A stretch of 31,480 nucleotides of DNA from a virus (taxonomy: Duplodnaviria > Heunggongvirae > Uroviricota > Caudoviricetes). Shown here in pieces: positions 1-31,480 of this stretch (position 1 is the stretch's first letter; each line of letters begins with the position of its first letter). The notes beneath the pieces were generated by a model. It was not told the DNA's origin. It worked only from the letters and a program-made list of their open reading frames with translations, and ran no database searches. The DNA is taken from the IMG/VR virus record IMGVR_UViG_2531839484_000009. One strand, written 5' to 3'. The translations under genes and the position numbers were made by a program.

Positions 1-216
1 GGCGGCGGCACAGTTGGTGTGGCGGCCTCAGTCCGGAACAATTTGAAAACAAGAACCTCGCTTAGGCCTGTGTCCATATTACGTGGGTAGGATCACGCAG
101 GGGTCGGCCCATTTGAGCTTCAGATAGGAACGTTTGAATTCCTTTCACAAAATACATCACATACTGAACGTGAACATTCCCACTTTGATCTTAAGGCCAA
201 AAAGTATGCAGGACTA

Positions 217-1935
217 ATGATTTTTAGGGATAGCTTGAGAGTATTACCTTATGGTCGAGTAGATAATGATTTCTTCCAGATAGAAGAAAGACGTTCATGG
301 AATGCAGGGCGATATTATTGGTCTAATAGAAGGATTTTTGGTTATATTGGAATTACTCAATCCAGTAATAAAGAGCTGAAAGATAAGTCGGGGAGAGAGG
401 GATTCATAAGAAACCAGGCTGCAAGAGAACTGAAAACTATTATATCTAATTTGTTAACTGAACTTGCTGATAGATTTTTTGGTTCACGTTCTGATGACCG
501 TAAAGAGCTTTTAGAACAAGTTAAGCGTGAAAAAGAGTTAAGAAAATCTGCTCAACAACAAGCTCGAAAATCAACACAAAAAAGTTTTTCAGAAGCTTTG
601 AAGAATCAGACACCAGTTCTTGATGCTTCCTTGGAGGCTGTTAAAAGGCTGAAAACTAAGCTTGATAAAACTGATGGTTCGTTAGATTTAAACTATCTTA
701 AAATTATAGACAGTGATCTTACAAACTTAGATGCGTTGCGCAGTGAAATTAAAACGCCTATCAAACCTCCAAAACTTGGAATGTATGAAGAGAAATATAG
801 AGACTACAGAGATAAATTTAATGAGTTCTCTGCGTATATTCTACAAATGAAGTTAGCAATTAATAAACTTGATTCTGAATTAAATAAACTTGAGCCTTCA
901 TTGTCAGCGAAAAATCACCTTGAAAAAAATCAAGGTATTATTAATTCTAAACTAACTAAGTTTAATAACACGATAGAGGAGAAGATACATTCTCTTTTAA
1001 AAAAATGGGCCGATGAAATAAAGGTTGATCGAAGTGATTATTATGCTAAAACTATATCAGTTGTTGATTCAATAGATAATGATTCACAAATTGAAAATGT
1101 GTTTAATTTGCTCGATAGTTTATATGTTGAGTCAGTTGATACCCTAACTTTCAAATATCAATCAATAATAAAAGGTCTCGATAGATTATTTGAAGGTATA
1201 AACTTAGATTCAGCATTCTCATTATCTGAAGAAGAACGCTCATATTTTGAAGAAAAAGCTAAAAGTTTAAACGCGCTTGCACAGTTAGGTATTAGTGTTG
1301 AGATAATATCTCATGAACTTGAAGAAATGGATTCTATGGTAACCAGAGGACTAAACTCTCTTCCTACTTCTGTAAAAGAACACCCTGGTTTTTCATTGGC
1401 GTTAAATGCTCACAGATCGCTTACTCAACAAATACGTTTCTTATCACCTTTGAAAATATCAGGTTATCAATCCAGGCAGAGAATAACTGGAAAAAATATC
1501 ATGGATTATGTCCTGAAGTTCTTTGGGGAGCGTTTCGAACGGCAACGAATAACTATTGAATTTAGTGAAGAGTTTAAGCAAATCGCAATAACAGATATAC
1601 CATCAAGGATCTATCCTGTTTTTACTAATATTATCAACAATGCAATGTATTGGGTCAGTCTGTCAAATAATAGGCTCATAAAGATTGGTTTTGTGAATTC
1701 TTTGGTTATCATAGCAAATTCTGGTCCGGCAATTGATACCGATGATATCCCGCGACTATTTGAACTATTTTATAGCAAAAGAGCAAATGGACATGGGGTA
1801 GGTCTGTATCTATGTCGAGAAAACCTTGCTGTTGCACATCATAAAATATGGTATTCAGAACCTGATGAAGGCGATAACTATTTAATAAAAGATGGCGCTA
1901 ATTTTGTGATCCAGTTCAATGGAGTGGAGTTCTAA
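217..1935 (+). CDS. Histidine-kinase-like protein: coiled-coil N-terminal region, HisKA-like H-box, C-terminal GHKL ATPase (HATPase_c)
   Basis: H-box-like IISHELEE; N-box NIINNAMYW; G1-like IDTDD; G2-like GHGVGLYL. No hydrophobic TM segment seen. No in-frame start between the stop at 88-90 and ATG 217. Confidence 0.55.
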   Translation: MIFRDSLRVLPYGRVDNDFFQIEERRSWNAGRYYWSNRRIFGYIGITQSSNKELKDKSGREGFIRNQAARELKTIISNLLTELADRFFGSRSDDRKELLEQVKREKELRKSAQQQARKSTQKSFSEALKNQTPVLDASLEAVKRLKTKLDKTDGSLDLNYLKIIDSDLTNLDALRSEIKTPIKPPKLGMYEEKYRDYRDKFNEFSAYILQMKLAINKLDSELNKLEPSLSAKNHLEKNQGIINSKLTKFNNTIEEKIHSLLKKWADEIKVDRSDYYAKTISVVDSIDNDSQIENVFNLLDSLYVESVDTLTFKYQSIIKGLDRLFEGINLDSAFSLSEEERSYFEEKAKSLNALAQLGISVEIISHELEEMDSMVTRGLNSLPTSVKEHPGFSLALNAHRSLTQQIRFLSPLKISGYQSRQRITGKNIMDYVLKFFGERFERQRITIEFSEEFKQIAITDIPSRIYPVFTNIINNAMYWVSLSNNRLIKIGFVNSLVIIANSGPAIDTDDIPRLFELFYSKRANGHGVGLYLCRENLAVAHHKIWYSEPDEGDNYLIKDGANFVIQFNGVEF

Positions 1936-1936
1936 T

Positions 1937-3685
1937 ATGACAGTGGCAAATTATAATTCTCTTGTCCAGAAAACTTTCTGCGAAAATGCAATTCGTTCCG
2001 TTGTCATGATTGATGACGATTTTCTGACGTATTCTGAATCAATCAGGGCGTTGAATAACGAAGTTGATTTAGACTACAACAAAATTGACTCATCTAAACG
2101 AGCCGCTACTCTTGAGAGCTTTTTTCAATCTAAAAATATGATTTGTGATGTTGACAATGGTTCTGTTAATTTCGATGTGGATCGGATTAGAAAATCAGAT
2201 CTTATTATTGTAGATTATCATCTTGATAATAATGCACCTGATAAAACACTTAAACCATTACAAGATTTGAAAGACTCCGATCATTTAAATATGATTGTAA
2301 TATATACTAGAGAGAATTTAGAAACGGTTTGGATGCAGATATCATCGACTCTCAAAGGTGCTCTGGATATCAACAGCTTGATCATTGACTACGATAATGA
2401 AGATGTCCAAAGTTATTGGGAAGACGTTGTATTACCGAACTTAAATGATAATGGTAATAAAGCTCTCACAAGAGATGAAACAATAGCCTATATTAAAGAC
2501 AGTAAGCCTTGTAGAAGAATTAAAAGATTAATACATGATGATGCTGTGTTGGAGGATCAAAAGGATAAAAACTTCATTGCAAAAATGATTGCAGAATATG
2601 CTGTGTCTAGAAATGCAATTATTTCTAGCAACACATCTGGCAATGTCATTCGGGGTGATGAAAGCGGAGTAAAATGGATTCAATGTGGTAATATCTTTGT
2701 CTCCCTATTTCATAAGGTTCAAGATGATCATGAAAACGATGGAGATAGGATTTGGCAAACTCTCAATGATTCTCTCATTGAATGGAAACCATCTTATTAT
2801 CAGTTAATAAAATCTGAAATTCAGAATGCAATCGAAGCTGAGGCTTTATCTTTTGTAAATCATTTGGCTAACGATCATTACGGTCAAGCTGCGTGGTTAA
2901 ATGAGATATTAAAATCAGACTCGCCTGATATTAGATGTAGAAATATTGACTTTGTATTTGGTAATTTATCAGAAGAGCTTTATCAAAGACTTAAAAATAA
3001 TAATACGCTGGATGAATTTATCAAAAGTGTTTTTGATAGCTATTCAAATGAATACGCTAACAGCGGAGTTGCTGCATTGCTCCAATATTGCTCTTCAAAA
3101 ATGGATCTGCCATCAAATAATGATACTTATCACGAAATGTATCATGCTTTAAATATGAATTTGTCTTCAAAGAATTTTGAAGATGGTCATATTTCTACTG
3201 GCACTATTTTCTTTGATACAGAGTCGAACAAATGGTATTTATGTGTATCTGCGGCATGTGATTTGGTTCCTACTCAGGGTAACGACCCTCACCATGTAAG
3301 ATTAAGTCCGCACAGGCTCATTAAAGTTCTGGAGCTTTTTAACGCCAGTCAGAGTAAAGCATTGCCATTTGCTGAACATTCGAAATATATATATGTAATG
3401 CATAAAAATCAAAGAAAATATCTCTCTATTTTCGAAGGGGATAAAACGCTTCCTGTTGTTGATTATATGGTGGTGTTGAATCATGGAACAACAGTTGATG
3501 GCGAAGAAAAAAATATTATTTCTGCCGTGTTTTTAAGTAATATGGATGGCAACGTGCAAAATGTTCCTGTCCGACTCAAACTTAAATCTCAACTGAGAAC
3601 TGGTTATGCAGAAAGATATCAGGCTATAGCGTCTCAGTATAGCTCAAGGATTGGTGTGGATTATGTATCAATGATGCTACCATAA
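1937..3685 (+). CDS. Receiver (REC)-like domain protein with ~450-aa uncharacterised C-terminal domain
   Basis: N-terminal motifs VVMIDDD, DLIIVDYHL and MIVIYT fit the REC beta1/beta3/beta4 pattern. ATG 1937 is preferred over ATG 1919 because GGAGTGGAG sits 7 nt upstream; it lies 1 nt after the kinase stop. No HTH output domain recognised. Confidence 0.5.
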   Translation: MTVANYNSLVQKTFCENAIRSVVMIDDDFLTYSESIRALNNEVDLDYNKIDSSKRAATLESFFQSKNMICDVDNGSVNFDVDRIRKSDLIIVDYHLDNNAPDKTLKPLQDLKDSDHLNMIVIYTRENLETVWMQISSTLKGALDINSLIIDYDNEDVQSYWEDVVLPNLNDNGNKALTRDETIAYIKDSKPCRRIKRLIHDDAVLEDQKDKNFIAKMIAEYAVSRNAIISSNTSGNVIRGDESGVKWIQCGNIFVSLFHKVQDDHENDGDRIWQTLNDSLIEWKPSYYQLIKSEIQNAIEAEALSFVNHLANDHYGQAAWLNEILKSDSPDIRCRNIDFVFGNLSEELYQRLKNNNTLDEFIKSVFDSYSNEYANSGVAALLQYCSSKMDLPSNNDTYHEMYHALNMNLSSKNFEDGHISTGTIFFDTESNKWYLCVSAACDLVPTQGNDPHHVRLSPHRLIKVLELFNASQSKALPFAEHSKYIYVMHKNQRKYLSIFEGDKTLPVVDYMVVLNHGTTVDGEEKNIISAVFLSNMDGNVQNVPVRLKLKSQLRTGYAERYQAIASQYSSRIGVDYVSMMLP

Positions 3686-3756: not shown

Positions 3757-4173
3757 TTATTTTTGTTTAAGTCTTCTAAGCTTCATGCATTCTAATGAGA
3801 ATAATAATAGAGTTGTGCTGTATATAAAGCCAGAGTTAGTTAATAACTTTAAATTTAATGCTTCAGGATTTTCACTGAGAAAGTGAAAGGCATAAACTAA
3901 GTATACAGCTAAAGTAGCCGTTCCAATTGTTGGTCCAATATCGCCTTGATCATGAGGTTCAAGGTTTACATTGAACTTGAAGATTAGCCATTCAAATCCC
4001 CAAGTAAAAAAAACAACTAATATCATGGCTGCGAATAATTTCGCGATGTTATCTGCTGATGGATTCATCAGAACAGATTGTTTCTGAAAAAATTCACAAA
4101 GTGAGAGTCCGAAAAAAATAAAAAAAAGTGGTCTGGAACTAAATTTTTCAAAAACTTTGAATAGGGTTTCCAT
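3757..4173 (-). CDS. Small integral membrane protein (several hydrophobic helices), function unknown
   Basis: 138-aa ORF with hydrophobic stretches LFFIFFGLSL, AAMILVVFFTW, ATLAVYLVYAF, LLLFSL; AT-rich; convergent with the kinase/receiver pair. Confidence 0.4.
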   Translation of the reverse strand: METLFKVFEKFSSRPLFFIFFGLSLCEFFQKQSVLMNPSADNIAKLFAAMILVVFFTWGFEWLIFKFNVNLEPHDQGDIGPTIGTATLAVYLVYAFHFLSENPEALNLKLLTNSGFIYSTTLLLFSLECMKLRRLKQK

Positions 4174-4211
4174 TTTCTTTACCTTCAGGATTATATTAGC
4201 TATTCTGATAC

Positions 4212-5441
4212 TTAGGCTACCAGAGCATTTGATCTTTGAGCTTGAACGTAATCACTCCACCATTGCATCAAACTCTGTCGCTCTATCAGATATTCTGCAC
4301 GATTGTATGCTGCGATAATTTCATCTTTTTTCGAGTGGGCAAGCGCTGCCTCAAGAACTTCAGCTCTGAATTTACCAGACTCCTCTGCCGCTGTTCGTGC
4401 AATAGAACGCATACCGTGAGCTACAAGCTCGCCTCCGAACCCCATTCGGATGATAGCTGCGTTGGCTGTTTGTTCATGCATATGATTAAGAGGCGCTTTT
4501 ATGCTGGGGAAAACCCATTCTCTATGCCCACTTATTGATTTCATTAATTCAAGGATGCGCAAAGCTTCTTTACTCAAAGGAACTTTGTGAAGCTTTTTCA
4601 TTTTCATGAAATCAGCAGGAATGTTCCAAATGCTGTTGGTTGTATCAATATCAGACCACCTTGCGCGAACGGCTTCACCCGGACGAACCCATGTCAACAA
4701 TTGCCATTCAATTAGCATACGTGTTTCCAACCGGATTGACGCATTCGTCAAAGATTCCATAAACCTTGGCAATTCGCTTGGGGGAAGGGCAGGCATATTT
4801 TGCTTTTTTGGTTTACTGAATCTTTGACCAAGGTTGTCAGCCGGGTTGAACTCAATAAGTTCTTCAGTAGCTGCCCACCGGAAGATTTCATTCAGACGTG
4901 AAATGATACGGCGTAGAGTTTCCAATACGCCTCGTTGCTCAATAGGATCAAGGTGTTGTTTTAAGAGCTTAGGTCGGATCTCATTGATAGGGACATTACC
5001 CAGACCGGGAAAGACATTTCTCTCTAAGCTGCGCCAGATGTCTGCTGCATGGTCTTGTGAGATACCTGATGTCTTTACCTTCTCATCTAACCATTTCCGC
5101 GCTACGGCTTGGAGAGTGTGCTCAGTAGCACTCTTTAATGCCTTCGCCTTATCGTTGTTATGGATTTGGGGATCAACACCATTTGCCAGAAAGGAGAGAT
5201 ATTCATCACGTAAGGCTCTGGCTCTTGCAAGGGTAAGGTGAGGATATGTCCCAAGGCTCATTTTGGTTCTTTTCTTGCTCACTGGTACTGCATACCTGAA
5301 ATACCAATTTTTCTTGCCTCCTTTCGCCAAAGGAGCGATTCGTAGAATCAGACCATCACCGTCAAACAAGTTGATTTCTTTATCGGCTGGCTTGGTGCTT
5401 TTGATTTCAGTGTCAGTGAGCTTCTTAGCGATTTTTGCCAT
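4212..5441 (-). CDS. int: Tyrosine integrase, P4-like family with N-terminal arm-binding domain
   Basis: N-terminus KLTDTEIKSTKP...LFDGDGLILRIAPLAKGGKKNWYFRY is typical of P4-type integrases; C-terminal catalytic region HGMRSIARTAA. Start ATG 5441 has GAGGG upstream; ATG 5483 is an alternative in-frame start. Confidence 0.85.
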   Translation of the reverse strand: MAKIAKKLTDTEIKSTKPADKEINLFDGDGLILRIAPLAKGGKKNWYFRYAVPVSKKRTKMSLGTYPHLTLARARALRDEYLSFLANGVDPQIHNNDKAKALKSATEHTLQAVARKWLDEKVKTSGISQDHAADIWRSLERNVFPGLGNVPINEIRPKLLKQHLDPIEQRGVLETLRRIISRLNEIFRWAATEELIEFNPADNLGQRFSKPKKQNMPALPPSELPRFMESLTNASIRLETRMLIEWQLLTWVRPGEAVRARWSDIDTTNSIWNIPADFMKMKKLHKVPLSKEALRILELMKSISGHREWVFPSIKAPLNHMHEQTANAAIIRMGFGGELVAHGMRSIARTAAEESGKFRAEVLEAALAHSKKDEIIAAYNRAEYLIERQSLMQWWSDYVQAQRSNALVA

Positions 5442-5538
5442 TTTGGGACCCTCGGTTTTTGGACCCTTCTTAGTGGGTCCCATTCAGGGTGCCATAACTC
5501 GTAGTTCTCAGCAATTCTCACTGGACGACAATAGACGT

Positions 5539-5571
5539 AAAAAAGCCCGCAGAGCTTGTGCTGTGTGGGCT
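5539..5571 (-). terminator. Imperfect hairpin plus T6 run immediately downstream of the ssrA 3' fragment (minus strand)
   Basis: Minus strand reads GCCCACACAGC-acaa-GCTCTGCGGGC followed by TTTTTT; 9 of 11 stem pairs. Confidence 0.4.
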
Positions 5572-5606
5572 TAGTAGACTTCATTGAACTTCAAACAACT
5601 AAAAAG

Positions 5607-5651
5607 TGGTGGAGCTGGCGGGAGTTGAACCCGCGTCCGAAATTCCTACAT
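5607..5651 (-). repeat. ssrA: 45-bp copy of the 3' end of tmRNA gene ssrA including the CCA end; att core / integration-site remnant
   Basis: Minus strand matches the recalled E. coli ssrA 3' terminus ...ATGTAGGAATTTCGGACGCGGGTTCAACTCCCGCCAGCTCCACCA over 45 nt, then diverges into AT-rich sequence. Confidence 0.75.
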
Positions 5652-5767
5652 ACCATTTTCACTACAGAAAAAATAATGATTTATGTTTAAAAACAATATG
5701 TTAGTGTTATGTGGTGTTTGGCAGTTTTATCTGTTTTTAAAGCTCTGCCGCCAAAATGTCGCCATCA

Positions 5768-6799
5768 TCAATCGCGTCTCAGCTGGGGTAAGCGAGACAT
5801 CTTGGCGGGTTGATAAGCTATAGTGATCAAGAACTGAGAATACTTGAACCAATTCTCTAGAATCCCTTCACCATATATCAAAATTTTATCTTCTATAGGG
5901 AAGTACAAGTTTACCACTTCATTTCTGCAAGTATCCAAGAAGGCGTAGGTTATCTCTTCTAAGGATTGCAGTGATTCGTACAGAGTGCCAAAATCATAAA
6001 ATGGTGAATAAACTTGGTATTTATTATAACTATCATTTATTACAAATGACTTTTTATAATGAAATCCACCTAAACACAACAGTTTACAAGTTTTTTCATA
6101 AATAATCATAACTCCTACAAATATTCTCATCTTTGTTGTGCAAAGTTCCTCTGTAGGATGTATTTGATTTTCACTCTCGGATAATTGCTTGAGTCTTGCG
6201 TTGATTTCTACCCAACATTTGTGTAAATCAATAACAAATTGCTCATTAATATCTAATTGTTGAGAATCATCAGGCGTAGATTGTGGGTATGCTTTTCTAT
6301 ATAGTTCTTGTGGATGTTTTATAAAATGTTGGTAGATTGCTTCAGCTTGAGCTTCCTGAACCGGGTAGTAGCTGCCTATTCTTTTTCCTTCGATTTTTTT
6401 ATATAAATCAAGATGAAATTTCATGTGGTTGTAATATAAATCTACCCTGTTTTTCCTTTCTGCCTCTGAGATCTGTTTTTCTGTTTGTTTGGTTCTGTGT
6501 AGGTTGTTTACTATTGAAACTAAAGGTACTGCAGATGCAAGGATGAGTAATGGTAATTTCGAGATATCTAAAAATCTCTCATAACCGTGACTTGTAAGAC
6601 TAAAAGAGTGTATTTTATCTATCCAGACAAAAGAACCAAAGTAAAGGCTGGTGAATAAAGGTAGGCCTATTGCAGCCCAGAACAAGGGTTGTTGGAACAA
6701 GCTTCTATGATCGAGAACATAAAGTCGATATTTTATAAATAAGAATATACAACCTAATAAAACGGATAGGTACATAAATGTGCTAATGCTTTTTTCCAT
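5768..6799 (-). CDS. Membrane-anchored hypothetical protein (N-terminal TM helices plus ~250-aa soluble domain); prophage cargo between int and att
   Basis: ATG 6799 lies 2 nt after the int stop (6802-6804) on the same strand; N-terminal hydrophobic segments YLSVLLGCIFLFI, LFWAAIGLPLFTSLYFGSFVW, LPLLILASAVPLVSIV; AT-rich relative to int. Confidence 0.5.
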   Translation of the reverse strand: MEKSISTFMYLSVLLGCIFLFIKYRLYVLDHRSLFQQPLFWAAIGLPLFTSLYFGSFVWIDKIHSFSLTSHGYERFLDISKLPLLILASAVPLVSIVNNLHRTKQTEKQISEAERKNRVDLYYNHMKFHLDLYKKIEGKRIGSYYPVQEAQAEAIYQHFIKHPQELYRKAYPQSTPDDSQQLDINEQFVIDLHKCWVEINARLKQLSESENQIHPTEELCTTKMRIFVGVMIIYEKTCKLLCLGGFHYKKSFVINDSYNKYQVYSPFYDFGTLYESLQSLEEITYAFLDTCRNEVVNLYFPIEDKILIYGEGILENWFKYSQFLITIAYQPAKMSRLPQLRRD

Positions 6800-6801
6800 T
6801 A

Positions 6802-7821
6802 TCAGTATCCCAACATAGCCAGTGGATTTTTTGTTACAGCATCTTCTAAATGATCTGGCGAAAAATGAGCATAAACCATCGTCATTTTTATATCAGAGTG
6901 ACCAAGAATATCGCGTAGTACCAATATGTTTCCGCCATTCATCATGAAGTGACTGGCGAATGTATGGCGCAACACGTGTGTGCACTGGCCTTCAGGCAGG
7001 TCTATACCGGCTCGTTTTACTGCGCGCTCAAAAGCTTTTCTGCAGGGCGTGAATAGTTTCCCTCTGTTTTTGGGGAGTTCTTCATATAGCTCCTGAGATA
7101 TCGGTACGGTTCGGTTTTTCTTGCCTTTAGTTTTGGTGTAGGTGATCCGGTATTTTGATAATTGATGGCCCTGCAGGTTTTCGGCTTCACTCCATCTCGC
7201 GCCGGTGGCCAGACATATTTTTGCAACCGTCAGCAGACTAGAGCTTTGAGAATCGGCGCAGGCATCCAGCAGACGTTTAATTTCTTCCGGGGTCAGGAAC
7301 GCCAATTCACTCTCAGCAATTTTAAATGTTGGCAGCCCAGCAAGCGGGTTGGGGGCTGACCAGTGGCCCAGCTTTTTCAGTGTACCAAAAACAGATGATA
7401 GATTGCGCTGTTCAAGGTTTACCGTGCGGGGCTTAACGGGCGACATAAACGTGCCATCTTCATTTCGTACTTCACCTTTTAACCGTGCTTCGCGGTATTT
7501 CGTAAAGTCACCGGCTGTCAGTTCTGAAGCGATGGGATCGCCTAGACCATTACAGATAATACTAAGTTTCGCCATGAGGCGCTTGGGGTCTGTGAGTGTT
7601 TGACCATACAGGGAATACCACAGCTCAATTAATTCTGATAGATGTCGCCGATCTTCCTTTTCCCCCAGCCATGGTTTTTTGTTCACTTCTTCCATTGTGA
7701 AGCTTTCAAATGCAATAGCTTCGCCTTTGGTAGCAAATTGCTTACGCACGCGCTTACCATTGCGTCCATTGGGATAGCACTCACACAACCATTTTCCGTT
7801 CGGCTGTTTTCTGATGGTCAT
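6802..7821 (-). CDS. int: Tyrosine integrase, P2/186 type
   Basis: 339 aa; C-terminal catalytic region HVLRHTFASHFMMNGGNILVLRDILGHSDIKMTMVYAHF; located downstream of the repressor gene as in P2/186. Confidence 0.9.
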   Translation of the reverse strand: MTIRKQPNGKWLCECYPNGRNGKRVRKQFATKGEAIAFESFTMEEVNKKPWLGEKEDRRHLSELIELWYSLYGQTLTDPKRLMAKLSIICNGLGDPIASELTAGDFTKYREARLKGEVRNEDGTFMSPVKPRTVNLEQRNLSSVFGTLKKLGHWSAPNPLAGLPTFKIAESELAFLTPEEIKRLLDACADSQSSSLLTVAKICLATGARWSEAENLQGHQLSKYRITYTKTKGKKNRTVPISQELYEELPKNRGKLFTPCRKAFERAVKRAGIDLPEGQCTHVLRHTFASHFMMNGGNILVLRDILGHSDIKMTMVYAHFSPDHLEDAVTKNPLAMLGY

Positions 7822-7824
7822 AAG

Positions 7825-8475
7825 TTAGAGGTTCTTGATTACTTTGACTGCACGTCCTACGACTTCCACATCATCTACAGAACATTCAAATGAAGTGTCA
7901 TCTTGGTTAACTACTATTTTGTTTCCGGGTATGCGCGCAATTTTGACGATGTTTTTCATACCGTCGATGTCTATGAGCCAAATTCCGTTACTAAGCTGTT
8001 TTGCTGATGTATCAACAATGTAATTGCCGTCGTTAGCTTTGACGTACAAACAATATTCGGCTTTTCCGGGTATCAAAGTCTGATCAAGGAAAACATCCCC
8101 CATCTCTTCGAGCGTTCCGTTCTCAATGGTTGCCTGCCTTACTGATGGGATAACTATCTTTGAAAGGGGGCGAACTGTAGGTGAACTCTCATTTTTGAAC
8201 TTATTTTTTTCTTCTGTTTGAGGATACATTTCCCCTTGGCCCGTTGTCAGCCAAAGAAGAGAAATACCTGTTTCAAGGGCACATTGAATAACCCAGTCAG
8301 CAGGGAAGCTATCACGTAACATCCTGTTTGCCATGGTGCTTTTTGATGCTTCGAGGTGTTCAACCAACGCAATCTGAGTGTTGAAACCATAGGCAGTCAT
8401 CAGCCTTTTGATGGTCTCTCTTCCTCCCGTATTTGCACCTGTATTAATCTTCAAGATGAACTCTCCATTTGACAA
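7825..8475 (-). CDS. cI: CI-type immunity repressor (186 CI-like)
   Basis: N-terminal region TAYGFNTQIALVEHL...CALETGISLLWLTTGQG resembles the 186 CI HTH region as recalled; divergent from apl-like gene. Start could alternatively be the internal Met at 8400. Confidence 0.7.
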   Translation of the reverse strand: MSNGEFILKINTGANTGGRETIKRLMTAYGFNTQIALVEHLEASKSTMANRMLRDSFPADWVIQCALETGISLLWLTTGQGEMYPQTEEKNKFKNESSPTVRPLSKIVIPSVRQATIENGTLEEMGDVFLDQTLIPGKAEYCLYVKANDGNYIVDTSAKQLSNGIWLIDIDGMKNIVKIARIPGNKIVVNQDDTSFECSVDDVEVVGRAVKVIKNL

Positions 8476-8577: not shown

Positions 8578-8820
8578 ATGAGCACAGATATTTCAATTCG
8601 TGTACCAAAAGAGATGGCTACGCCTGCTGAATTCGCTGAATGGGAAGGGATTTCCCGTGGGTCTGTTTACCAAAAAATTCACCATGGCCAACTCGCTAAG
8701 TACATGGTCAAGAAAGAAAAAAACAAAGGCCGCGTAAGCCTGCGTTATCTGATGTACAAAACTGATCAGGTCCGTGAATCCCTCGGTCATTCCAACTTCC
8801 GCGTCATTGTTGGTAAGTAA
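8578..8820 (+). CDS. Apl/Cox-like small DNA-binding protein (excisionase / lytic-switch regulator)
   Basis: 80-aa ORF divergent from the repressor gene at the position of apl/cox; basic, HTH-like segment. Confidence 0.5.
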   Translation: MSTDISIRVPKEMATPAEFAEWEGISRGSVYQKIHHGQLAKYMVKKEKNKGRVSLRYLMYKTDQVRESLGHSNFRVIVGK

Positions 8821-10403: not shown

Positions 10404-11257
10404 GCACCATCCTGAAATGGGCGGGAAATAAAACCGCCATTATGTCCGAACTGAAAAAGCATCTTCCTGCTGGCCCGCGACTGGTTGAACCTTTCGCGGG
10501 TTCCTGTGCAGTGATGATGGAGACGGAGTACCCCAGCTATCTTGTTGCGGATATTAATCCTGATTTAATCAACCTCTATAAAAAGGTTGCTGCTGATTGT
10601 GAATCGTTTATATCTCGCGCCAAAGCTTTATTTGAGGAAGCAAACAGGGAGGTGGCTTATTACAACATAAGGCAGGAGTTTAATTACTCAACTGAAATTA
10701 CTGATTTCATGAAAGCGGTATATTTCCTGTATCTCAATCGTCACGGTTACCGTGGTTTATGTCGCTATAACAAGAGCGGGCATTTCAACATTCCCTACGG
10801 TAATTATAAAAATCCGTATTTCCCTGAAAAAGAAATTCGCGCATTTGCAGAAAAAGCCCAGCGAGCAACGTTTATCTGCGCCAGCTTTGATGAAACGCTG
10901 GCGATGTTGAAGGCGGGGGATGTGGTGTATTGCGATCCGCCGTATGACGGTACGTTTTCCGGCTATCACACTGATGGTTTCACTGAAGATGACCAGTATC
11001 ACCTGGCATCCGTTCTTGAACATCGGTCATCAGAAGGACATCCGGTCATTGTTTCTAACAGTGACACATCCCTGATCCGTTCGTTGTATCGCAATTTCAC
11101 CCACCACTACATCAAAGCAAAACGCAGCATCGGTGTGGCAGCTGGCGAGGGTAAATCAGCAACAGAAATCATTGCTGTTTCCGGGCCGCGCTGCTGGGTG
11201 GGATTTGATTATTCGCGTGGCGTGGACAGTTCTGCCGTGTACGGAGTACGTGCATGA
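10400..11257 (+). CDS. dam: DNA adenine methyltransferase (Dam family, orphan)
   Basis: N-terminal ILKWAGNK and catalytic DPPY motif ([12 protein letters not shown]); start ATG 10400 overlaps the upstream stop. Confidence 0.9.
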
Positions 11258-14635: not shown

Positions 14636-16606
14636 ATGATAAGAAATATATATATAAAGAATTTTAAAACATTAAATATGACATCATATATCGAACTTAA
14701 AGAATGTTCATTTTTGTGTGGCGCTAACAGTAGTGGTAAAAGTTCACTTATACAAACACTTCTAATGTTAGCTCAAACTTTTTCTAATAGATATCAAGAT
14801 GATAGTATGGTTTTAAATGGGTCTTTAGCAAGACTGGGTTCATTTACAGATATCAAAAAGCACAACTCTACAGAGGAAGTTATTACTATTGGTTTCACTT
14901 TTGATGTTGATGAGGCGTATTATCTTCGTGATAATACAATAAATTCAATTAGATGTGAGTTTGTTATTGGTAGAAGAGACCGCTCTGTAGCAAAAATAGA
15001 CGAAGATTATCATCCTATAATAATTTCTGCGAAATATTTTATTAGTAAGGGGGGGAATAATAAACAACAGGATTATATACACTTCCAATGTTCAGGTGAT
15101 TATTTTTATTCTAAAGAAGTGGTATATGACGTAGTGTCATTCAACACCTCTGAATATAATGATTTGAAGAAGAGGTTTCCAAGTCTAAAGATTTTAAGTA
15201 TTGCTAAATCTGGGGATTTAATTCCTTCTTTAATAAATATTCAATATGATAAAACAAAAAAAGAAAGCTATGAAATAATTAATTTTTTAACTAGAAAGCA
15301 TAGCACACAGAGGGGGGGGTATTTTTTAGATGATGAGGATTTTGGTGATGATATTCTTATCCCTAGAGAATTCTCCGCAAGAGTTTTGGAGTTGATAAAG
15401 GAAGAACGTAATAAATTATTGGACGAGTTTGACTTGCCAAACGATCTTCTTGACATCATGACACATAGTCATATTGCTAAAGATGATTATATCTCCTATA
15501 GCTATGACAAAAATAAATTATCGCAGAGAGCTAAGGAATTATTAAACGAAATTAAAGGTAATTTCATTGAAATAAACTATTCTTTACAATCAAGTGATAT
15601 TCCTTTAATTTTTGTAAATAAAGCTGTTAGTATAGTTGATTGGAAATCTTGGTTAGATGCTTTGGATGAGAAGAAAAGGAAAAGTTTAATCGTATTGTTA
15701 GAAAAGCACAGGGACAGTCTACAAGCAATATGGTATAACAATATTGATGTTAAAATGACAAGCGACGTATATAGTTCGCACCTTTTACAAGATGTAGAAA
15801 ATGCAATGGTGTACTGTTTCTCGCGAAGCCTAAAGTACCTTGGGCCTCTACGACATGAACCTCAGGCTGTCTATTCATCGAGCCCTTATGATGCAAACAC
15901 CGTAGGTTTGAAAGGTGAATTTACCGCCTCTCTTCTTCATCGAAATCGCGCTAATTTTATATGTTACAGCTCCCCTTCTATAATTAATGGTAAAATAAAC
16001 GTTAGAGAAAAGTATGATACTCTAAACAACGCTTGTAAAGAGTGGTTGTCATTTTTAGGTGTTGTTGAGGAAGTAAGAACTACTGATAAAGGTAAATTAG
16101 GCTATGAGTTATACGTTAAAACTTCTAGCGGCGAAAAATGGCAAGATCTCACTCACGTAGGTGTTGGTGTCAGTCAAGTACTGCCTATTGTATTGATGTT
16201 CTTGAATTCAGATCCTTCAGATGTGTTAATTTTTGAACAACCGGAATTACATTTACATCCTAAAGTTCAATCTAAATTATGTGACCTTTTTCTTATAATG
16301 GCAAATACTGGTCGCCAGTGCATTATTGAAACTCACAGTGAGTATATGATCAATAGATTGAGGCTTAGAGTTGCGCAAGATTTAGACAATAATTACCTCA
16401 AAAAATCAGCGCTATATTTTATAAATAAAGTTAATGGGATATCAGAATTCCAAAATATAAATATTAACAAGTATGGTGCGATTCCTGAATGGCCTGAAGA
16501 TTTCTTTGATCAAACAGATAAGGAAGTTGAAAAGATTTTAATGGAGGCAAGCATAAAGAAAAATAAAGAAAAAGCTAAGAGGTTTACCAATGACAGCGGT
16601 TATTAA
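14636..16606 (+). CDS. ABC/OLD-type (AAA_15/AAA_21-like) ATPase with Walker A and Walker B separated by ~500 aa
   Basis: Walker A GANSSGKSS near the N-terminus; Walker-B-like VLIFEQPELHLHP and H-loop-like IIETHS near residue 530-560; strongly AT-rich. Confidence 0.7.
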   Translation: MIRNIYIKNFKTLNMTSYIELKECSFLCGANSSGKSSLIQTLLMLAQTFSNRYQDDSMVLNGSLARLGSFTDIKKHNSTEEVITIGFTFDVDEAYYLRDNTINSIRCEFVIGRRDRSVAKIDEDYHPIIISAKYFISKGGNNKQQDYIHFQCSGDYFYSKEVVYDVVSFNTSEYNDLKKRFPSLKILSIAKSGDLIPSLINIQYDKTKKESYEIINFLTRKHSTQRGGYFLDDEDFGDDILIPREFSARVLELIKEERNKLLDEFDLPNDLLDIMTHSHIAKDDYISYSYDKNKLSQRAKELLNEIKGNFIEINYSLQSSDIPLIFVNKAVSIVDWKSWLDALDEKKRKSLIVLLEKHRDSLQAIWYNNIDVKMTSDVYSSHLLQDVENAMVYCFSRSLKYLGPLRHEPQAVYSSSPYDANTVGLKGEFTASLLHRNRANFICYSSPSIINGKINVREKYDTLNNACKEWLSFLGVVEEVRTTDKGKLGYELYVKTSSGEKWQDLTHVGVGVSQVLPIVLMFLNSDPSDVLIFEQPELHLHPKVQSKLCDLFLIMANTGRQCIIETHSEYMINRLRLRVAQDLDNNYLKKSALYFINKVNGISEFQNININKYGAIPEWPEDFFDQTDKEVEKILMEASIKKNKEKAKRFTNDSGY

Positions 16607-17615
16607 ATTTGAATATTTAATATCTCCATTGATATGCACTGGTGGGCAGGTAGATGAGCATGTCAATGGTCTGCGATTATTAAAAGAATTAGTTAGTAGT
16701 TCTGACATAGACGTCAAATGCGAGGACTCCATACTCAGCAATATGCAAGAGGCTGGTTATTATCCATGTGCTAAAATATTGAGTAGGGCATTCCCTGGTG
16801 GTGAAGATTGCGTTCATAGCGCTCAAGATGTTTCAAAAATAATAAATAATATAATTAGCCATTTCGAAGAGTGCAATCCTGAAGTTACTTCTCATGAAAT
16901 CGAGTGGGACTCGTTTACGGTTGTGCCGCCTATAGAAACAATATCAGATGAGAGAAAAAATAATGTCGAAATTTTCTTGAGGAATATTCTTTCAAGAAAA
17001 TTTCTATTAAGTGAAGAGTTTTCTTTCTTTTATTCTCAAAGAAATAAGCCAATTCTTCAGTCCCAAAAGTTTTCATTAAGCGGTACAATTAGCGATATAT
17101 ACCCTGCGGATAGTGTAGCAATACCCATTGAATTAAGTAATGAAATAATTGCTCACGGTAATATTAATGATTTCATCAATAATATTGATGGGTACTCTTT
17201 ATATAAAATGGCTAGTAATATATCCGCTCTTAAATGTGCTCTCTTTTTTGGTTGTGTAAATTTTTTGAAAAATAATTATACAGGTGAAAAGTTCGAATGG
17301 GATGATTTCAAAATAGGAGCAGATTTTTTTGATTCGTTGCTAAGACATCAAGGTGCTTTTGAACAAGAGTTTTCCTCAGTAGTTTATGAAACTATAGTGC
17401 AAGTTTTATGTCGCCATCCTAAAAATGAAGTAAAACCATTTAGAGTATCTTCCAAGTCTACTGAACAAAGAACCCATGGTGATTTAAGGGCCTTTCGCAC
17501 CCATATCACTTCTAGACATCAAGCATTGAGACTAATGTTTTGGGTTGATTCCAATCAAATAATCACATTGGCAAATATTGGTCCGAAATTTGAAGAATCT
17601 ATTTCTTTGCCATGA
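16590..17615 (+). CDS. Uncharacterised partner protein of the ATPase (341 aa), putative effector
   Basis: ATG 16590 overlaps the ATPase gene by 17 nt, AGAGG 8 nt upstream; no recognisable HNH or clear TOPRIM motifs; C-terminal RAFRTH / RTHITSRH fit an Rx4-6H pattern. Confidence 0.5.
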   Translation: MTAVIKFEYLISPLICTGGQVDEHVNGLRLLKELVSSSDIDVKCEDSILSNMQEAGYYPCAKILSRAFPGGEDCVHSAQDVSKIINNIISHFEECNPEVTSHEIEWDSFTVVPPIETISDERKNNVEIFLRNILSRKFLLSEEFSFFYSQRNKPILQSQKFSLSGTISDIYPADSVAIPIELSNEIIAHGNINDFINNIDGYSLYKMASNISALKCALFFGCVNFLKNNYTGEKFEWDDFKIGADFFDSLLRHQGAFEQEFSSVVYETIVQVLCRHPKNEVKPFRVSSKSTEQRTHGDLRAFRTHITSRHQALRLMFWVDSNQIITLANIGPKFEESISLP

Positions 17616-28270: not shown

Positions 28271-28868
28271 TCTGCTGCCACAGGGTTCAACACCACTGGA
28301 GCGCCGACTGGCGCAAACCTGCAGCGGGATTTCTGATCTGCAGGTGCCGCTTCGTGACTTGTGGAATCCGGCAACCTGTCCGGTCAGTTTCCTGCCTTAT
28401 CTCGCCTGGGCGTTCTCTGTGGATCGCTGGGACGAGGGCTGGACAGAAAGCGTCAAGCGCCAGGTGGTGAAGGATGCTTTTTATATTCATCAGCATAAAG
28501 GGACCACCAGTGCCGTGCGGCGGGTGGTGGAGCCGTTCGGCTTTCTGATCCGCATTATTGAGTGGTGGCAGACCGGAGAGGCACCGGGCACGTTTCGCCT
28601 GGATATCGGCGTGCAGGACCATGGCATCACTGAAGATACCTATCTGGAACTTGAGCGACTGATAAGCGATGCCAAACCATGTAGCCGCCACATGATCGGC
28701 ATGTCCATCAATCTGCAGACCAGCGGCCCGCATTGGGTGGGAGCCGCCAGCTATCTTGGCGAAGAAATCACGATCTATCCGTATATCAACGAAACGATTA
28801 TTTCCGGTGGCACCGCGCATGAAGGCGGGGCGGTCCATGTTATTGACACAATGAGAGTGAATCCATGA
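28263..28868 (+). CDS. I: Baseplate/tail protein I (P2 gpI-like)
   Basis: 201 aa, overlaps J stop and H start. Confidence 0.75.
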   Translation: MNSLLPQGSTPLERRLAQTCSGISDLQVPLRDLWNPATCPVSFLPYLAWAFSVDRWDEGWTESVKRQVVKDAFYIHQHKGTTSAVRRVVEPFGFLIRIIEWWQTGEAPGTFRLDIGVQDHGITEDTYLELERLISDAKPCSRHMIGMSINLQTSGPHWVGAASYLGEEITIYPYINETIISGGTAHEGGAVHVIDTMRVNP

Positions 28869-30256
28869 GCACAAAATTTTATACCCTGCTGACGGATATT
28901 GGCGCGGCGAAACTTGCCAGCGCCGCCGCGCTCGGTGTGCCGCTAAAAATTACCCATATGGCGGTGGGCGATGGCGGCGGAGTATTGCCAACGCCGGACG
29001 CAAAGCAGACGGCACTGGTAAATGAGAAACGCCGGGCTGCGCTGAATATGCTTTATATCGACCCGCAGAACAGCAGCCAGATTATTGCTGAACAGGTGAT
29101 CCCTGAAAACGAGGGCGGTTGGTGGATACGTGAAGTGGGCCTGTTTGATGAGTCCGGGGCATTGATTGCCGTGGGAAACTGCCCGGAAAGCTATAAGCCG
29201 CAACTGGCTGAAGGCAGCGGGCGTACCCAGACCGTGCGCATGGTGCTGATTACCAGCAGCACGGACAATATCACCCTGAAAATCGACCCTGCTGTAGTGC
29301 TGGCAACCCGTAAATACGTGGATGATAAAGTCCTGGAATTAAAGCTGTATGTGGATGACCAGATGAGAAACCACATTGCCGCACAAGATCCTCATACCCA
29401 GTATGCGCAGAAACATAATCCGACATTTACCGGAGAACCAAAAGCGCCGACGCCTGCAGCAGGAAATAACACCACGCGGATTGCGACCACTGAGTTTGTT
29501 CAGGCCGCTATTACTGCTCTGATTAACGGTGCGCCAGCCACGCTGGACACACTGAAAGAAATTGCCGCAGCCATTAACAATGACCCGAAATTCAGTACCA
29601 CCATTAACAATGCGCTGGCACTAAAAGCACCGCTGTCGAGTCCGGCACTCACCGGAACGCCAACAGCACCTACTGCGGCACAGTCGGTCAACAATACACA
29701 GATTGCCACTACAGCTTTTGTGAAATCAGCGATTGCAGCAATGGTGGGTTCTGCACCTGCGGCACTGGATACACTGAACGAACTGGCGGCGGCACTGGGG
29801 AATGATCCGAACTTTGCCACGACAATGCTTAATGCGCTGGCAGGTAAACAACCGCTGGACAGTACGCTTACCAATTTGAGTGGAAAGGATGTAGCTGGTC
29901 TTCTCGCATACCTTGGTTTGGGAGAAGCCAGATATGTCATTCAGCGAGGAGCTAATGCCAATGGTGCATGGATACGCTGGTCAGATGGTGCAATAGAAGT
30001 ATTTGGAACCAGTGGATCTAATGATAATGGACTGGCTAAAGTTGTTTACCCAATTGCACTGCCTAAACTTTCACGTTTTATCAGTATCGCGGAAAGAATA
30101 AGAACGGATTACGAGAGCACACCTAATAATGTTCACGTTTCAATGATCGTGGATGATCAGGTAACAAATACCGGCTTTTATGCCCGCTGCCAGATGTACG
30201 ACGGCAGACCATCATCAAATGCTTTTTCCTGGAGGGTTTATTGTGCGCCTGTTTAA
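28865..30256 (+). CDS. H: Tail fibre protein H: conserved N-terminal region joined at an invertase crossover site to an AT-rich variable C-terminal domain
   Basis: N-terminus MSTKFYTLLTDIGAAKLASAAALGVPLKITHMAVGDGGG as in P2-family tail fibres; composition shifts after the crossover site at 29901-29926. Confidence 0.85.
   Translation: MSTKFYTLLTDIGAAKLASAAALGVPLKITHMAVGDGGGVLPTPDAKQTALVNEKRRAALNMLYIDPQNSSQIIAEQVIPENEGGWWIREVGLFDESGALIAVGNCPESYKPQLAEGSGRTQTVRMVLITSSTDNITLKIDPAVVLATRKYVDDKVLELKLYVDDQMRNHIAAQDPHTQYAQKHNPTFTGEPKAPTPAAGNNTTRIATTEFVQAAITALINGAPATLDTLKEIAAAINNDPKFSTTINNALALKAPLSSPALTGTPTAPTAAQSVNNTQIATTAFVKSAIAAMVGSAPAALDTLNELAAALGNDPNFATTMLNALAGKQPLDSTLTNLSGKDVAGLLAYLGLGEARYVIQRGANANGAWIRWSDGAIEVFGTSGSNDNGLAKVVYPIALPKLSRFISIAERIRTDYESTPNNVHVSMIVDDQVTNTGFYARCQMYDGRPSSNAFSWRVYCAPV
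29901..29926. repeat. 26-bp near-palindromic crossover site of the Gin/Hin/Cin/Pin DNA-invertase type, inside gene H
   Basis: TTCTCGCATACCTTGGTTTGGGAGAA: 20 of 26 matches to the recalled hix site TTATCAAAAACCTTGGTTTTCAAGAA; an inverted copy begins at 31467. Confidence 0.6.
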
Positions 30257-30440
30257 TCCAGTTACTTTGACTGAAGTAATCCCCGGTCTTCATGACGTGA
30301 CCGGGGCTATTGAATTACCGGAGGACAACTGGTTTTTTACTATGACAGAAATTCCTCAGGGCATGGAGCTAACAATTAATGAGAAAGGCGAACCAATACT
30401 AATTGAGGTTAATCAGTCTCAGGGAGTACAGGCCAAATAA
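30243..30440 (+). CDS. Short ORF downstream of H, possible truncated or minimal tail-fibre assembly chaperone
   Basis: GTG 30243 preceded by GGAGGG; 65 aa; lacks the conserved tail-fibre-assembly C-terminal domain; overlaps the convergent tfa gene by 32 bp. Confidence 0.3.
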   Translation: MRLFNPVTLTEVIPGLHDVTGAIELPEDNWFFTMTEIPQGMELTINEKGEPILIEVNQSQGVQAK

Positions 30441-31014
30441 TATCAGGCGCGGTGCTGGTATCTGTTGCCGTCACCGCGTCAGTGTAATCCAGCACAGCGT
30501 TAAGCCGGGTTGTTTCTGCCTGCGTCAGTTTCCGCCCGGCCTGTAATTTCAGCTGAATCAGACTAATGGAAGCCATTGCTGCATCAATCAGTGACTGACG
30601 CTGTGCTTCTGCCGCTTCTACTGCGGCACCGTGTTGTGCCTCAGTATCCGTCACCCATTTCTCACCATCCCATTTATCGTATGGCGTTAATGGGGCGATA
30701 GTGGTTGTATTATCAGGGTAATTACCCGGAGCTGTGATTTCTTTTGATTCTCCTGTTGCGGTGCTAAAGACGATTTCACCGCGATGGTCTGGCACATATT
30801 CCCATGAGTTAAAATCTGCAGAACGGCAGATTGCATAACCAGCTTTGTATGCGCCTGGAGCATCTAAACAGGAACATGCCGGAATGCCGACACCAACGGC
30901 AAGATATTCAGTCGATATGGAAATATATTCCCGTGTTTCACCATCATAATTATAGACAGTAATATTCCCCGCCTTCGTGGCAATAAACTCGCTATTTAAT
31001 ACAGTGCTATCCAT
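30409..31014 (-). CDS. Tail fibre assembly protein (Tfa / Mu U / P2 gpG family), inverted orientation
   Basis: C-terminal region RLNAVLDYTDAVTATDTSTAPDIIWPVLPE matches the conserved Tfa C-terminal pattern as recalled. Confidence 0.8.
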   Translation of the reverse strand: MDSTVLNSEFIATKAGNITVYNYDGETREYISISTEYLAVGVGIPACSCLDAPGAYKAGYAICRSADFNSWEYVPDHRGEIVFSTATGESKEITAPGNYPDNTTTIAPLTPYDKWDGEKWVTDTEAQHGAAVEAAEAQRQSLIDAAMASISLIQLKLQAGRKLTQAETTRLNAVLDYTDAVTATDTSTAPDIIWPVLPETD

Positions 31015-31480
31015 TATGCAGCCCTCACAATGTAGTTAAATGCGATGTTGCGTGGACGGACACCGAAATAAGAAGTAACACCATTCATTGTCAAATTTCC
31101 AGAGCCAAAAGCGGTAAAACCAGAACCAGCATTAACTGCCGAATCCGCGTTTCTGACAAAGTTTTTGGGAGGTGAACCGGAGACACCAGCCGAAATATCA
31201 TCAGCATTACCGCCATTGCCGTGGTGGTTAGTTATCTTTGTTTCCGCCTGCGCCGTCAACAAACCTCGTCCAGAGTCAACCCCGCGCCCGTCATCCCAGC
31301 CGCGAATAAACTCACCACGTAAATCAGGCAATTTATTTGTCGGATAAGCCTTTGCCAGTTCCGGGTATTCTTCAGCAGAAAAAGCCGCGCCGTTGCATTT
31401 CAGCCAGCCTGTTGGCGGAGTGGCGGAAGGCCATGGAACAGGGACACCAACGGGTAATGCAGAGCCTTCTCCCAAACCAA
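31014..31480 (-). CDS. Alternative tail-fibre variable C-terminal domain (H'v), inverted orientation; 5' end beyond window
   Basis: PVGVPVPWPS...PPTGWLKCNGAAFSAEEYPELAKAYP resembles P2 H / Mu S C-terminal domains; reading frame continues through the inverted crossover site at the window end, encoding LGLGE as in H. Confidence 0.75.
   Translation of the reverse strand, partial: GLGEGSALPVGVPVPWPSATPPTGWLKCNGAAFSAEEYPELAKAYPTNKLPDLRGEFIRGWDDGRGVDSGRGLLTAQAETKITNHHGNGGNADDISAGVSGSPPKNFVRNADSAVNAGSGFTAFGSGNLTMNGVTSYFGVRPRNIAFNYIVRAA
31467..31480. repeat. Right-hand inverted copy of the invertase crossover site (first 14 nt only; truncated by window end)
   Basis: TTCTCCCAAACCAA equals the start of the reverse complement of the 29901-29926 site. 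Confidence 0.55.

Follow-up and report, generated by a model that had tools for sequence, protein, structure and literature searches.

A displaced ssrA 3' end very probably marks the junction of a Fels-2/186-type P2-like prophage with a CP4-57-family island in Escherichia coli

The 45 nucleotides at positions 5607-5651 are very probably the displaced 3' end of ssrA, at the integrase-proximal junction of a Fels-2/186-type, P2-like prophage. They lie near the left end of the window, by which we mean the whole stretch of 31,480 nucleotides that was analysed, and they are flanked by two integrase genes, one of the P4/IntA type on the left and one of the P2 family on the right, as a first-pass annotation had noticed. 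That annotation had also proposed that two elements stand in series at ssrA. Four configurations of the attachment site, found in free phages, in the window, in its close relatives and in a prophage-free strain, support the proposal. The features are collected in table 1.

How would such a junction arise? We propose that the attP of the phage carries a copy of the 45-bp ssrA 3' end, with arm-type integrase sites on its flanks and a terminator of its own, and that the phage tyrosine integrase would recombine this site with the 3' end of the chromosomal ssrA. The gene would be rebuilt at the ogr end of the prophage from its chromosomal body and a phage-donated 3' end and downstream terminator. 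The original 3' end, still joined to an island, would be pushed about 34 kb away, to 5607-5651. The island, older and of the CP4-57/IntA family, would have entered ssrA earlier through the last ~15 nt of the gene, bringing with it the hairpin at 5539-5572, and would later have lost its far end to IS3. The one fragment would then serve at once as the prophage junction and as the island's ssrA-proximal junction. Recombination activity, a crossover point inside the 45 bp, the order of these events and the competence of the prophage for excision today are what we infer from the comparisons that follow.

Table 1. Positions in the window of the features discussed, followed by the four configurations of the attachment site and the places where each is found.
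Feature	Position or source	Strand	Basis or remark
Right end of an IS3 copy	1-95 (right limit approximate)		truncates the distal side of the island
Histidine-kinase-like ATPase, island cargo	217-1935	+	Pfam HATPase_c and HEF_HK
Receiver-domain protein, island cargo	1919-3685	+	Pfam Response_reg_2
Small ORF, 138 aa	3757-4173	-	matches phrog_6556 (function unknown)
P4/CP4-57 (IntA)-family tyrosine integrase	4212-5441	-	Pfam Arm-DNA-bind_3 (DUF4102), Phage_int_M and Phage_integrase
Predicted island-borne intrinsic terminator	5539-5572	-	fold and terminator scan; homologous to the CP4-57 hairpin in K-12
34-nt spacer from CCA to hairpin, leftmost island DNA	5573-5606	-	sequence comparison
Displaced ssrA 3'-terminal 45 nt	5607-5651	-	45/45 identity; unique in the window; same 45 bp in attP of Cartapus and RE-2010
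Integrase-proximal attachment arm	5652-5767	-	conserved with Fels-2, Cartapus and RE-2010 to about 5767 (116 bp)
P2-like (Peduoviridae) prophage body	5652-31480		ORF order and matches; runs off the right end of the window
343-aa cargo gene between att arm and int	5768-6799	-	matches phrog_17460 (function unknown)
Prophage tyrosine integrase, Fels-2/186 type	6802-7821	-	Pfam Int_N and Phage_integrase
CI repressor	7825-8475	-	immunity switch, 186-type; Pfam Phage_CI_repr and Phage_CI_C
80-aa gene in the Apl/Cox position	8578-8820	+	counterparts: Cox-like excisionase (Cartapus), Apl (Fels-2)
attP: integrase-side arm / 45-bp core / other arm, with hairpin GGGGTTACGTGAAAGCGTAGCCCC and T-run	free phages Cartapus and RE-2010		
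Integrase-side arm / core / island DNA	the window		
ssrA body / core / phage arm with hairpin GGGGTTACGTGAAAGCGTAGCCCC and T-run, smpB adjoining	E6 and contig L015		
Empty site: ssrA body / core / island left end	strain 503025		100% over 310 nt

The minus strand of 5607-5651 reads ATGTAGGAATTTCGGACGCGGGTTCAACTCCCGCCAGCTCCACCA, CCA included. It agrees at 45 of 45 positions with the last bases of ssrA in E. coli E6, where the gene is intact and 363 nt long (L002 43632-43994), and with those of the K-12 gene, so that the terminal 45 nt of the gene reported at first pass are indeed present. The divergence reported beyond them is equally clear: identity to ssrA ends exactly at base 45, and what lies further upstream is prophage DNA with no ssrA body. 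The 45-mer occurs once in the window with up to three mismatches allowed (0 expected by chance). ARAGORN calls no tmRNA in the window, and the same 45 bp are found in phage attP, in agreement with the view that this is an att core and not an intact gene. We read 5607-5651 as the common core of the prophage's att sites. The last ~15 nt appear to double as the ssrA-proximal junction of the island; in the annotation of K-12, CP4-57 begins 15 nt before the end of ssrA.

On the prophage side of the core, the conserved arm contains repeats of the 186 type, TGGCGAC-ATTT-TGGCGGC, at 5747-5764; TGGCGACATTTTGGCGGC has a single match in the window, where 0.02 would be expected. The other arm contains TGGCGGC-AAAA-TGGCGAC (L015 1051-1068). 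The repeats are direct, lie on both sides of the core and fit the 186-type arm consensus, tgccGCCActt (PMC3448106). Fels-2 has this 45-bp core in its attP as well, and the two ends of the Fels-2 record are themselves annotated as a split attP. All the marks by which Islander recognizes a displaced fragment were found: a direct identical repeat (in E6), an adjacent integrase, a core shared with attP and an empty site.

If the 3' end of ssrA has been displaced, where is the intact gene? The first-pass annotation had expected it beyond the far, tail-fibre end of the prophage or beyond the left island, and had advised a search of the flanking genome. In E6, where the junction matches window 4000-7500 at 99.6%, the core occurs as exactly two direct copies, at L002 8636 and 43632; the second lies inside an intact ssrA adjoining smpB. 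The draft contig L015 agrees with the last 1000 nt of the window at 999 positions and carries the tail-fibre segment in the same orientation; its intact ssrA lies about 8.5 kb beyond the window, again next to smpB. Past the ogr end of the prophage, the 363-nt gene is found in two complete genomes that have the junction, and also in a draft contig to which the right end of the window matches. ARAGORN confirms the intact gene in L002, L013, L015 and L020, and it encodes the tag ANDENYALAA. The expectation was right as to the far end of the prophage (E6, L015); that end is marked by ogr rather than by the tail-fibre genes, and the gene does not lie beyond the left island. The second core and the intact ssrA are known from these close relatives, the window itself holding one core copy. 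A third copy, which had also been envisaged, was found neither in the window nor in E6, whether with the 45-mer (up to three mismatches) or with the terminal 15-mer (up to two). The extra matches to the 15-mer with two mismatches all fall inside phage genes and were rejected as chance.

To which element does the hairpin next to the fragment belong? The imperfect hairpin and T-run described at first pass are present: the minus strand carries GCCCACACAGCACAAGCTCTGCGGGC at 5545-5570, which folds as an interrupted stem (RNA fold), followed by six T at 5539-5544, and a terminator scan finds 5539-5570 to be the sole terminator-like site in 5300-6000. This hairpin is homologous to one that lies 3' of ssrA in K-12, inside CP4-57 as annotated. 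The spacer at 5573-5606 departs both from CP4-57 of K-12 and from the chromosomal flank right after the CCA, and it is common to the island type of L028. In L023 and L027, which have the prophage and no island, the prophage directly abuts the chromosome and the island hairpin is missing; the core is followed by ATCATGATTGG... and by a large gene on the minus strand, placed as ypjA is in K-12. This flank matches the K-12 sequence downstream of the psaA remnant, at the far end of CP4-57, and it appears only where the island is absent. Since the hairpin is homologous to that of CP4-57 and the flank is a different one in L023 and L027, the window's hairpin is island DNA, and the sequence after the CCA is, with it, the left end of the island and not chromosome. 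The claim that the hairpin was the fragment's own downstream hairpin is given up.

The host DNA is that of E. coli: window 4000-7500 is found over at least 80% of its length in six complete genomes, in five of them at 99.6-99.7% identity. The island integrase reads away from the ssrA fragment. It scores 440.4 bits against NCBIfam PRK09692 (cut-off 434) and has 48% amino-acid identity to K-12 IntA. Because the alignment with IntA begins at Met15, its start is likely at 5441 rather than at 5483; RefSeq gives the protein 409 aa. The two cargo genes adjoin the same integrase in L024, L025 and L033. No significant PADLOC match was obtained for this pair (217-3685), which may be a two-component-like conflict system. 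The C-terminal ~400 aa of the Response_reg_2 protein are uncharacterised, and the kinase gene of strain E6 has an internal stop. The 138-aa ORF has no Pfam, PADLOC or NCBIfam match.

What remains of the other end of this island? Window 1-260 is identical to a stretch of strain WP3 that begins inside the 3' end of an IS3 transposase gene, and we take the boundary of IS3 to be at about 95, from the IS3 terminal repeat. In relatives this IS3 adjoins a truncated ygaQ pseudogene and glaH. A distal ssrA fragment of the island, sought with the terminal 15-mer at up to two mismatches, was found neither in the window nor in E6. The island is probably immobile, lacking a detectable distal repeat; because its far end has been lost to IS3, its excision should no longer be possible. 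Its own integration at ssrA we infer from its homology to CP4-57 and its position.

Which of the two elements came first? We conclude that it was most likely the island. The empty-site junction, for which PCR had been suggested at first pass, was looked for by sequence, with a synthetic query of 310 nt counted as present when at least 80% was covered, in 5426 complete E. coli genomes. It is found in 978 of them; strain 503025, which has no prophage, provides the example, in the order smpB-ssrA-integrase-ORF-receiver-kinase-IS3-ygaQ'-glaH. The junction of prophage and island occurs in 69 complete genomes. The precedence of the island is argued both by the occurrence of the identical IS3-truncated island in 503025, where there is no prophage, and by the prophage-free junction being about 14 times commoner than the other.

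The reverse order would have the phage enter an island-free ssrA first and the P4-type island later insert into the displaced fragment. The fragment does retain its full 45 nt, and hence the ~15-nt target of IntA-type integrases; moreover, sites with the prophage and without the island exist (L023, L027). On the other hand, the truncated island of 503025 stands directly against an intact ssrA, with an integrase of the same protein accession as in WP3 and with the same cargo, IS3 and ygaQ remnant, and the difference in frequency between the two junctions, 978 against 69, points the same way. The island, without its distal end, looks old, and the prophage seems whole up to the end of the window. 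We consider the reverse order very unlikely and retain the island as the earlier arrival.

The prophage ORFs follow the order of its relatives: replication gene A, packaging, head, lysis, baseplate and tail fibre, with replication protein A (Phage_GPA) confirmed in the window by Pfam. Between 80 and 84% of 6481-31480 matches ssrA-sited prophages of other E. coli at about 96% identity, 84% being the best cover by any record of the E. coli collection. In L015 and E6 the remaining tail genes, ogr and the intact ssrA come next. The integrase, whose gene lies 1.15 kb from the core, has 92% amino-acid identity to the Int of Fels-2 (339 aa) and 94% to that of RE-2010, and we assign it to the 186/Fels-2 type within the P2-like phages. 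For the 80-aa gene, its position suggests a role as excisionase.

Several stretches of this prophage vary among its relatives. The slot between the arm and int holds the 343-aa gene here, a different, 401-aa gene (annotated RES/NAD+-binding) in Cartapus and RE-2010, and nothing in Fels-2. The 343-aa protein has no match in Pfam, PADLOC or NCBIfam; an index of a public assembly collection lists this very protein in 2686 blocks. Between replication gene A/DinI and the portal gene, 14636-17615 (plus strand) encodes a 656-aa ATPase (AAA_15/AAA_21/DUF3696) and a 341-aa partner. The ATPase matches NsnB of PADLOC (4e-78) and HEC-03B and is AriA-like, the partner has no family match, and the pair looks like an anti-phage system. 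In relatives this slot holds the retron Ec67 reverse transcriptase, a DUF4145 protein, a TIR/SEFIR protein or a KAP NTPase. The tail-fibre region, 28865-31480, contains an invertible segment, as seen by comparing the window with L013 and L015. Behind the 463-aa fibre gene of the window and of L015 come, in inverted orientation, a 201-aa assembly gene and an alternative fibre end; in L013 the opposite orientation yields a 504-aa fibre. In relatives, a gene for a resolvase-family invertase lies just past the end of the window. The stretch from ogr to the ssrA-proximal arm varies as well (L002 42608-43523; L015 1126-1608), with a gene for a reverse-transcriptase domain in E6 and a 160-aa gene in L015 and Cartapus, in the latter annotated as a putative exonuclease.

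Does the adjacency of prophage and island serve a function? The prophage might mobilise or regulate the island, or the island hairpin might end transcripts of the int operon and so affect expression of the island integrase. We regard this as highly improbable. Against mobilisation, the ORFs called in the island are the integrase, two cargo genes and one small ORF, and its distal att is lost; a pairing of P4 satellite and P2 helper was rejected, there being no P4 satellite genes among these called ORFs. The same prophage is also found beside several unrelated islands or none. Its left end has at least four different types of island as its neighbour, or else adjoins the chromosomal flank and the gene in the ypjA position directly; given such varied neighbours, the two elements are independent.

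PGAP, and with it RefSeq, labels a 177-nt 'ssrA' tmRNA at the same junction in WP3 and E6 (L001 21608-21784; L002 8636-8812), and the genomes with this call show two ssrA features each. Could the locus be a real tmRNA gene, short or in two pieces? The Rfam tmRNA model RF00023 does match 5607-5783 with 50.2 bits, over its gathering score of 47. In the alignment, however, the 3' end alone is convincing: 82 unaligned bases replace 267 positions of the model, the 5' acceptor and helix pairs are flagged as non-standard, and the 5' part falls within the coding sequence of the 343-aa protein. ARAGORN finds neither a tmRNA nor a tag reading frame in the window, and with the Rfam body absent, the complete tRNA-like domain, resume codon and tag frame of a functional tmRNA were not found at 5607-5783. 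A complete ssrA, encoding ANDENYALAA, is present elsewhere in the same genomes, and prophages with other cargo beside the core (13 matches, H8-H20) have the junction with no ssrA annotation. A genuine tmRNA gene at this position is close to inconceivable, and we reject it. The 177-nt 'ssrA' is a false gene call. It arises because a match to RF00023, made up of the 45-nt 3' end and a spurious 5' part, just exceeds the threshold.

Could the fragment instead have come from an ssrA that was once intact, through a deletion or an artefact of assembly, with no integration junction at all? The one core copy in the window accords with this, and we find it hardly credible: the break coincides exactly with the edge of the core that phage attP also carries, a conserved attachment arm occupies the 116 bp next to it, and the sequencing or assembly error for which the first-pass annotation had left room is rejected by the recurrence of the same junction in 69 complete genomes and many independent draft assemblies.

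What would excision of the prophage leave behind? Because the displaced copy is identical to the gene at 45 of 45 positions, excision should restore a wild-type ssrA with the island attached; a functional gene after excision is likewise tabulated for Fels-2 and SopEPhi. CP4-57 of K-12 differs, since its excision deletes T357 and inactivates the tmRNA (PMC10107115). In the island-free genome L023, the displaced fragment (~11150-11200) carries one T-to-C change (CCAGCCCCACCA), and excision there could in principle leave ssrA with a mutant 3' end, according to the position of the crossover. The prophage is bounded on its left at 5651/5652, and the island's boundary on the ssrA side is fixed also; because the island's own fragment is gone, the prophage alone is precisely delimited. 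The practical value lies in these exact element boundaries and in the flagging of the RefSeq mis-annotation, and extends little beyond annotation.

How does the window compare with what is known of ssrA as an integration site? Fels-2 and SopEPhi integrate in ssrA (PMC3448106). Table 1 of PMC10107115, citing Williams 2003, lists elements with P4-type and with P2-type integrases at ssrA, and both kinds in Salmonella LT2. The displaced fragments of Fels-2 and SopEPhi keep the wild-type CGCCAGCTCCACCA end (PMC10107115), as does the fragment here. The prophage resembles Fels-2 and RE-2010 in its integrase, and Cartapus and RE-2010 in the 45-bp ssrA core of attP, the 186-type arm repeats and the phage-borne terminator on the other arm. 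It differs from Fels-2, SopEPhi and RE-2010, which are of Salmonella, in having E. coli as its host, and from its relatives in the cargo of the arm-int and replication-portal slots.

The island resembles CP4-57 in that its P4-type integrase comes right after the 3' end of ssrA and in the same orientation, separated from it by a homologous, element-borne terminator; the layout is the same in the prophage-free strain 503025. Its integrase has the domain architecture of CP4-57 IntA and falls under the same NCBIfam model (PRK09692). Unlike CP4-57, it carries other cargo, its integrase is only 48% identical to IntA, and no AlpA-family gene is found among the island ORFs scanned against Pfam. The distal repeat and the ypjA-ileY region of CP4-57 in K-12 (psaA repeat, L003 23473-23486) are here replaced by IS3 and the truncated ygaQ.

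Islander builds on target genes that are regenerated, on displaced tDNA fragments and on tandem arrays, and each member of its strict arrays brings an integrase and a tDNA fragment of its own (PMC4383910). Both elements here have an integrase, and the island is without a tDNA fragment of its own, so that the pair falls outside the strict definition. In all else it is like the tandem arrays of Islander and TIGER, with the target regenerated at one end, a displaced fragment at the other and more than one integrase-bearing element at the same tDNA. The window is thus an E. coli instance of the already known stacking of phages and islands at ssrA.
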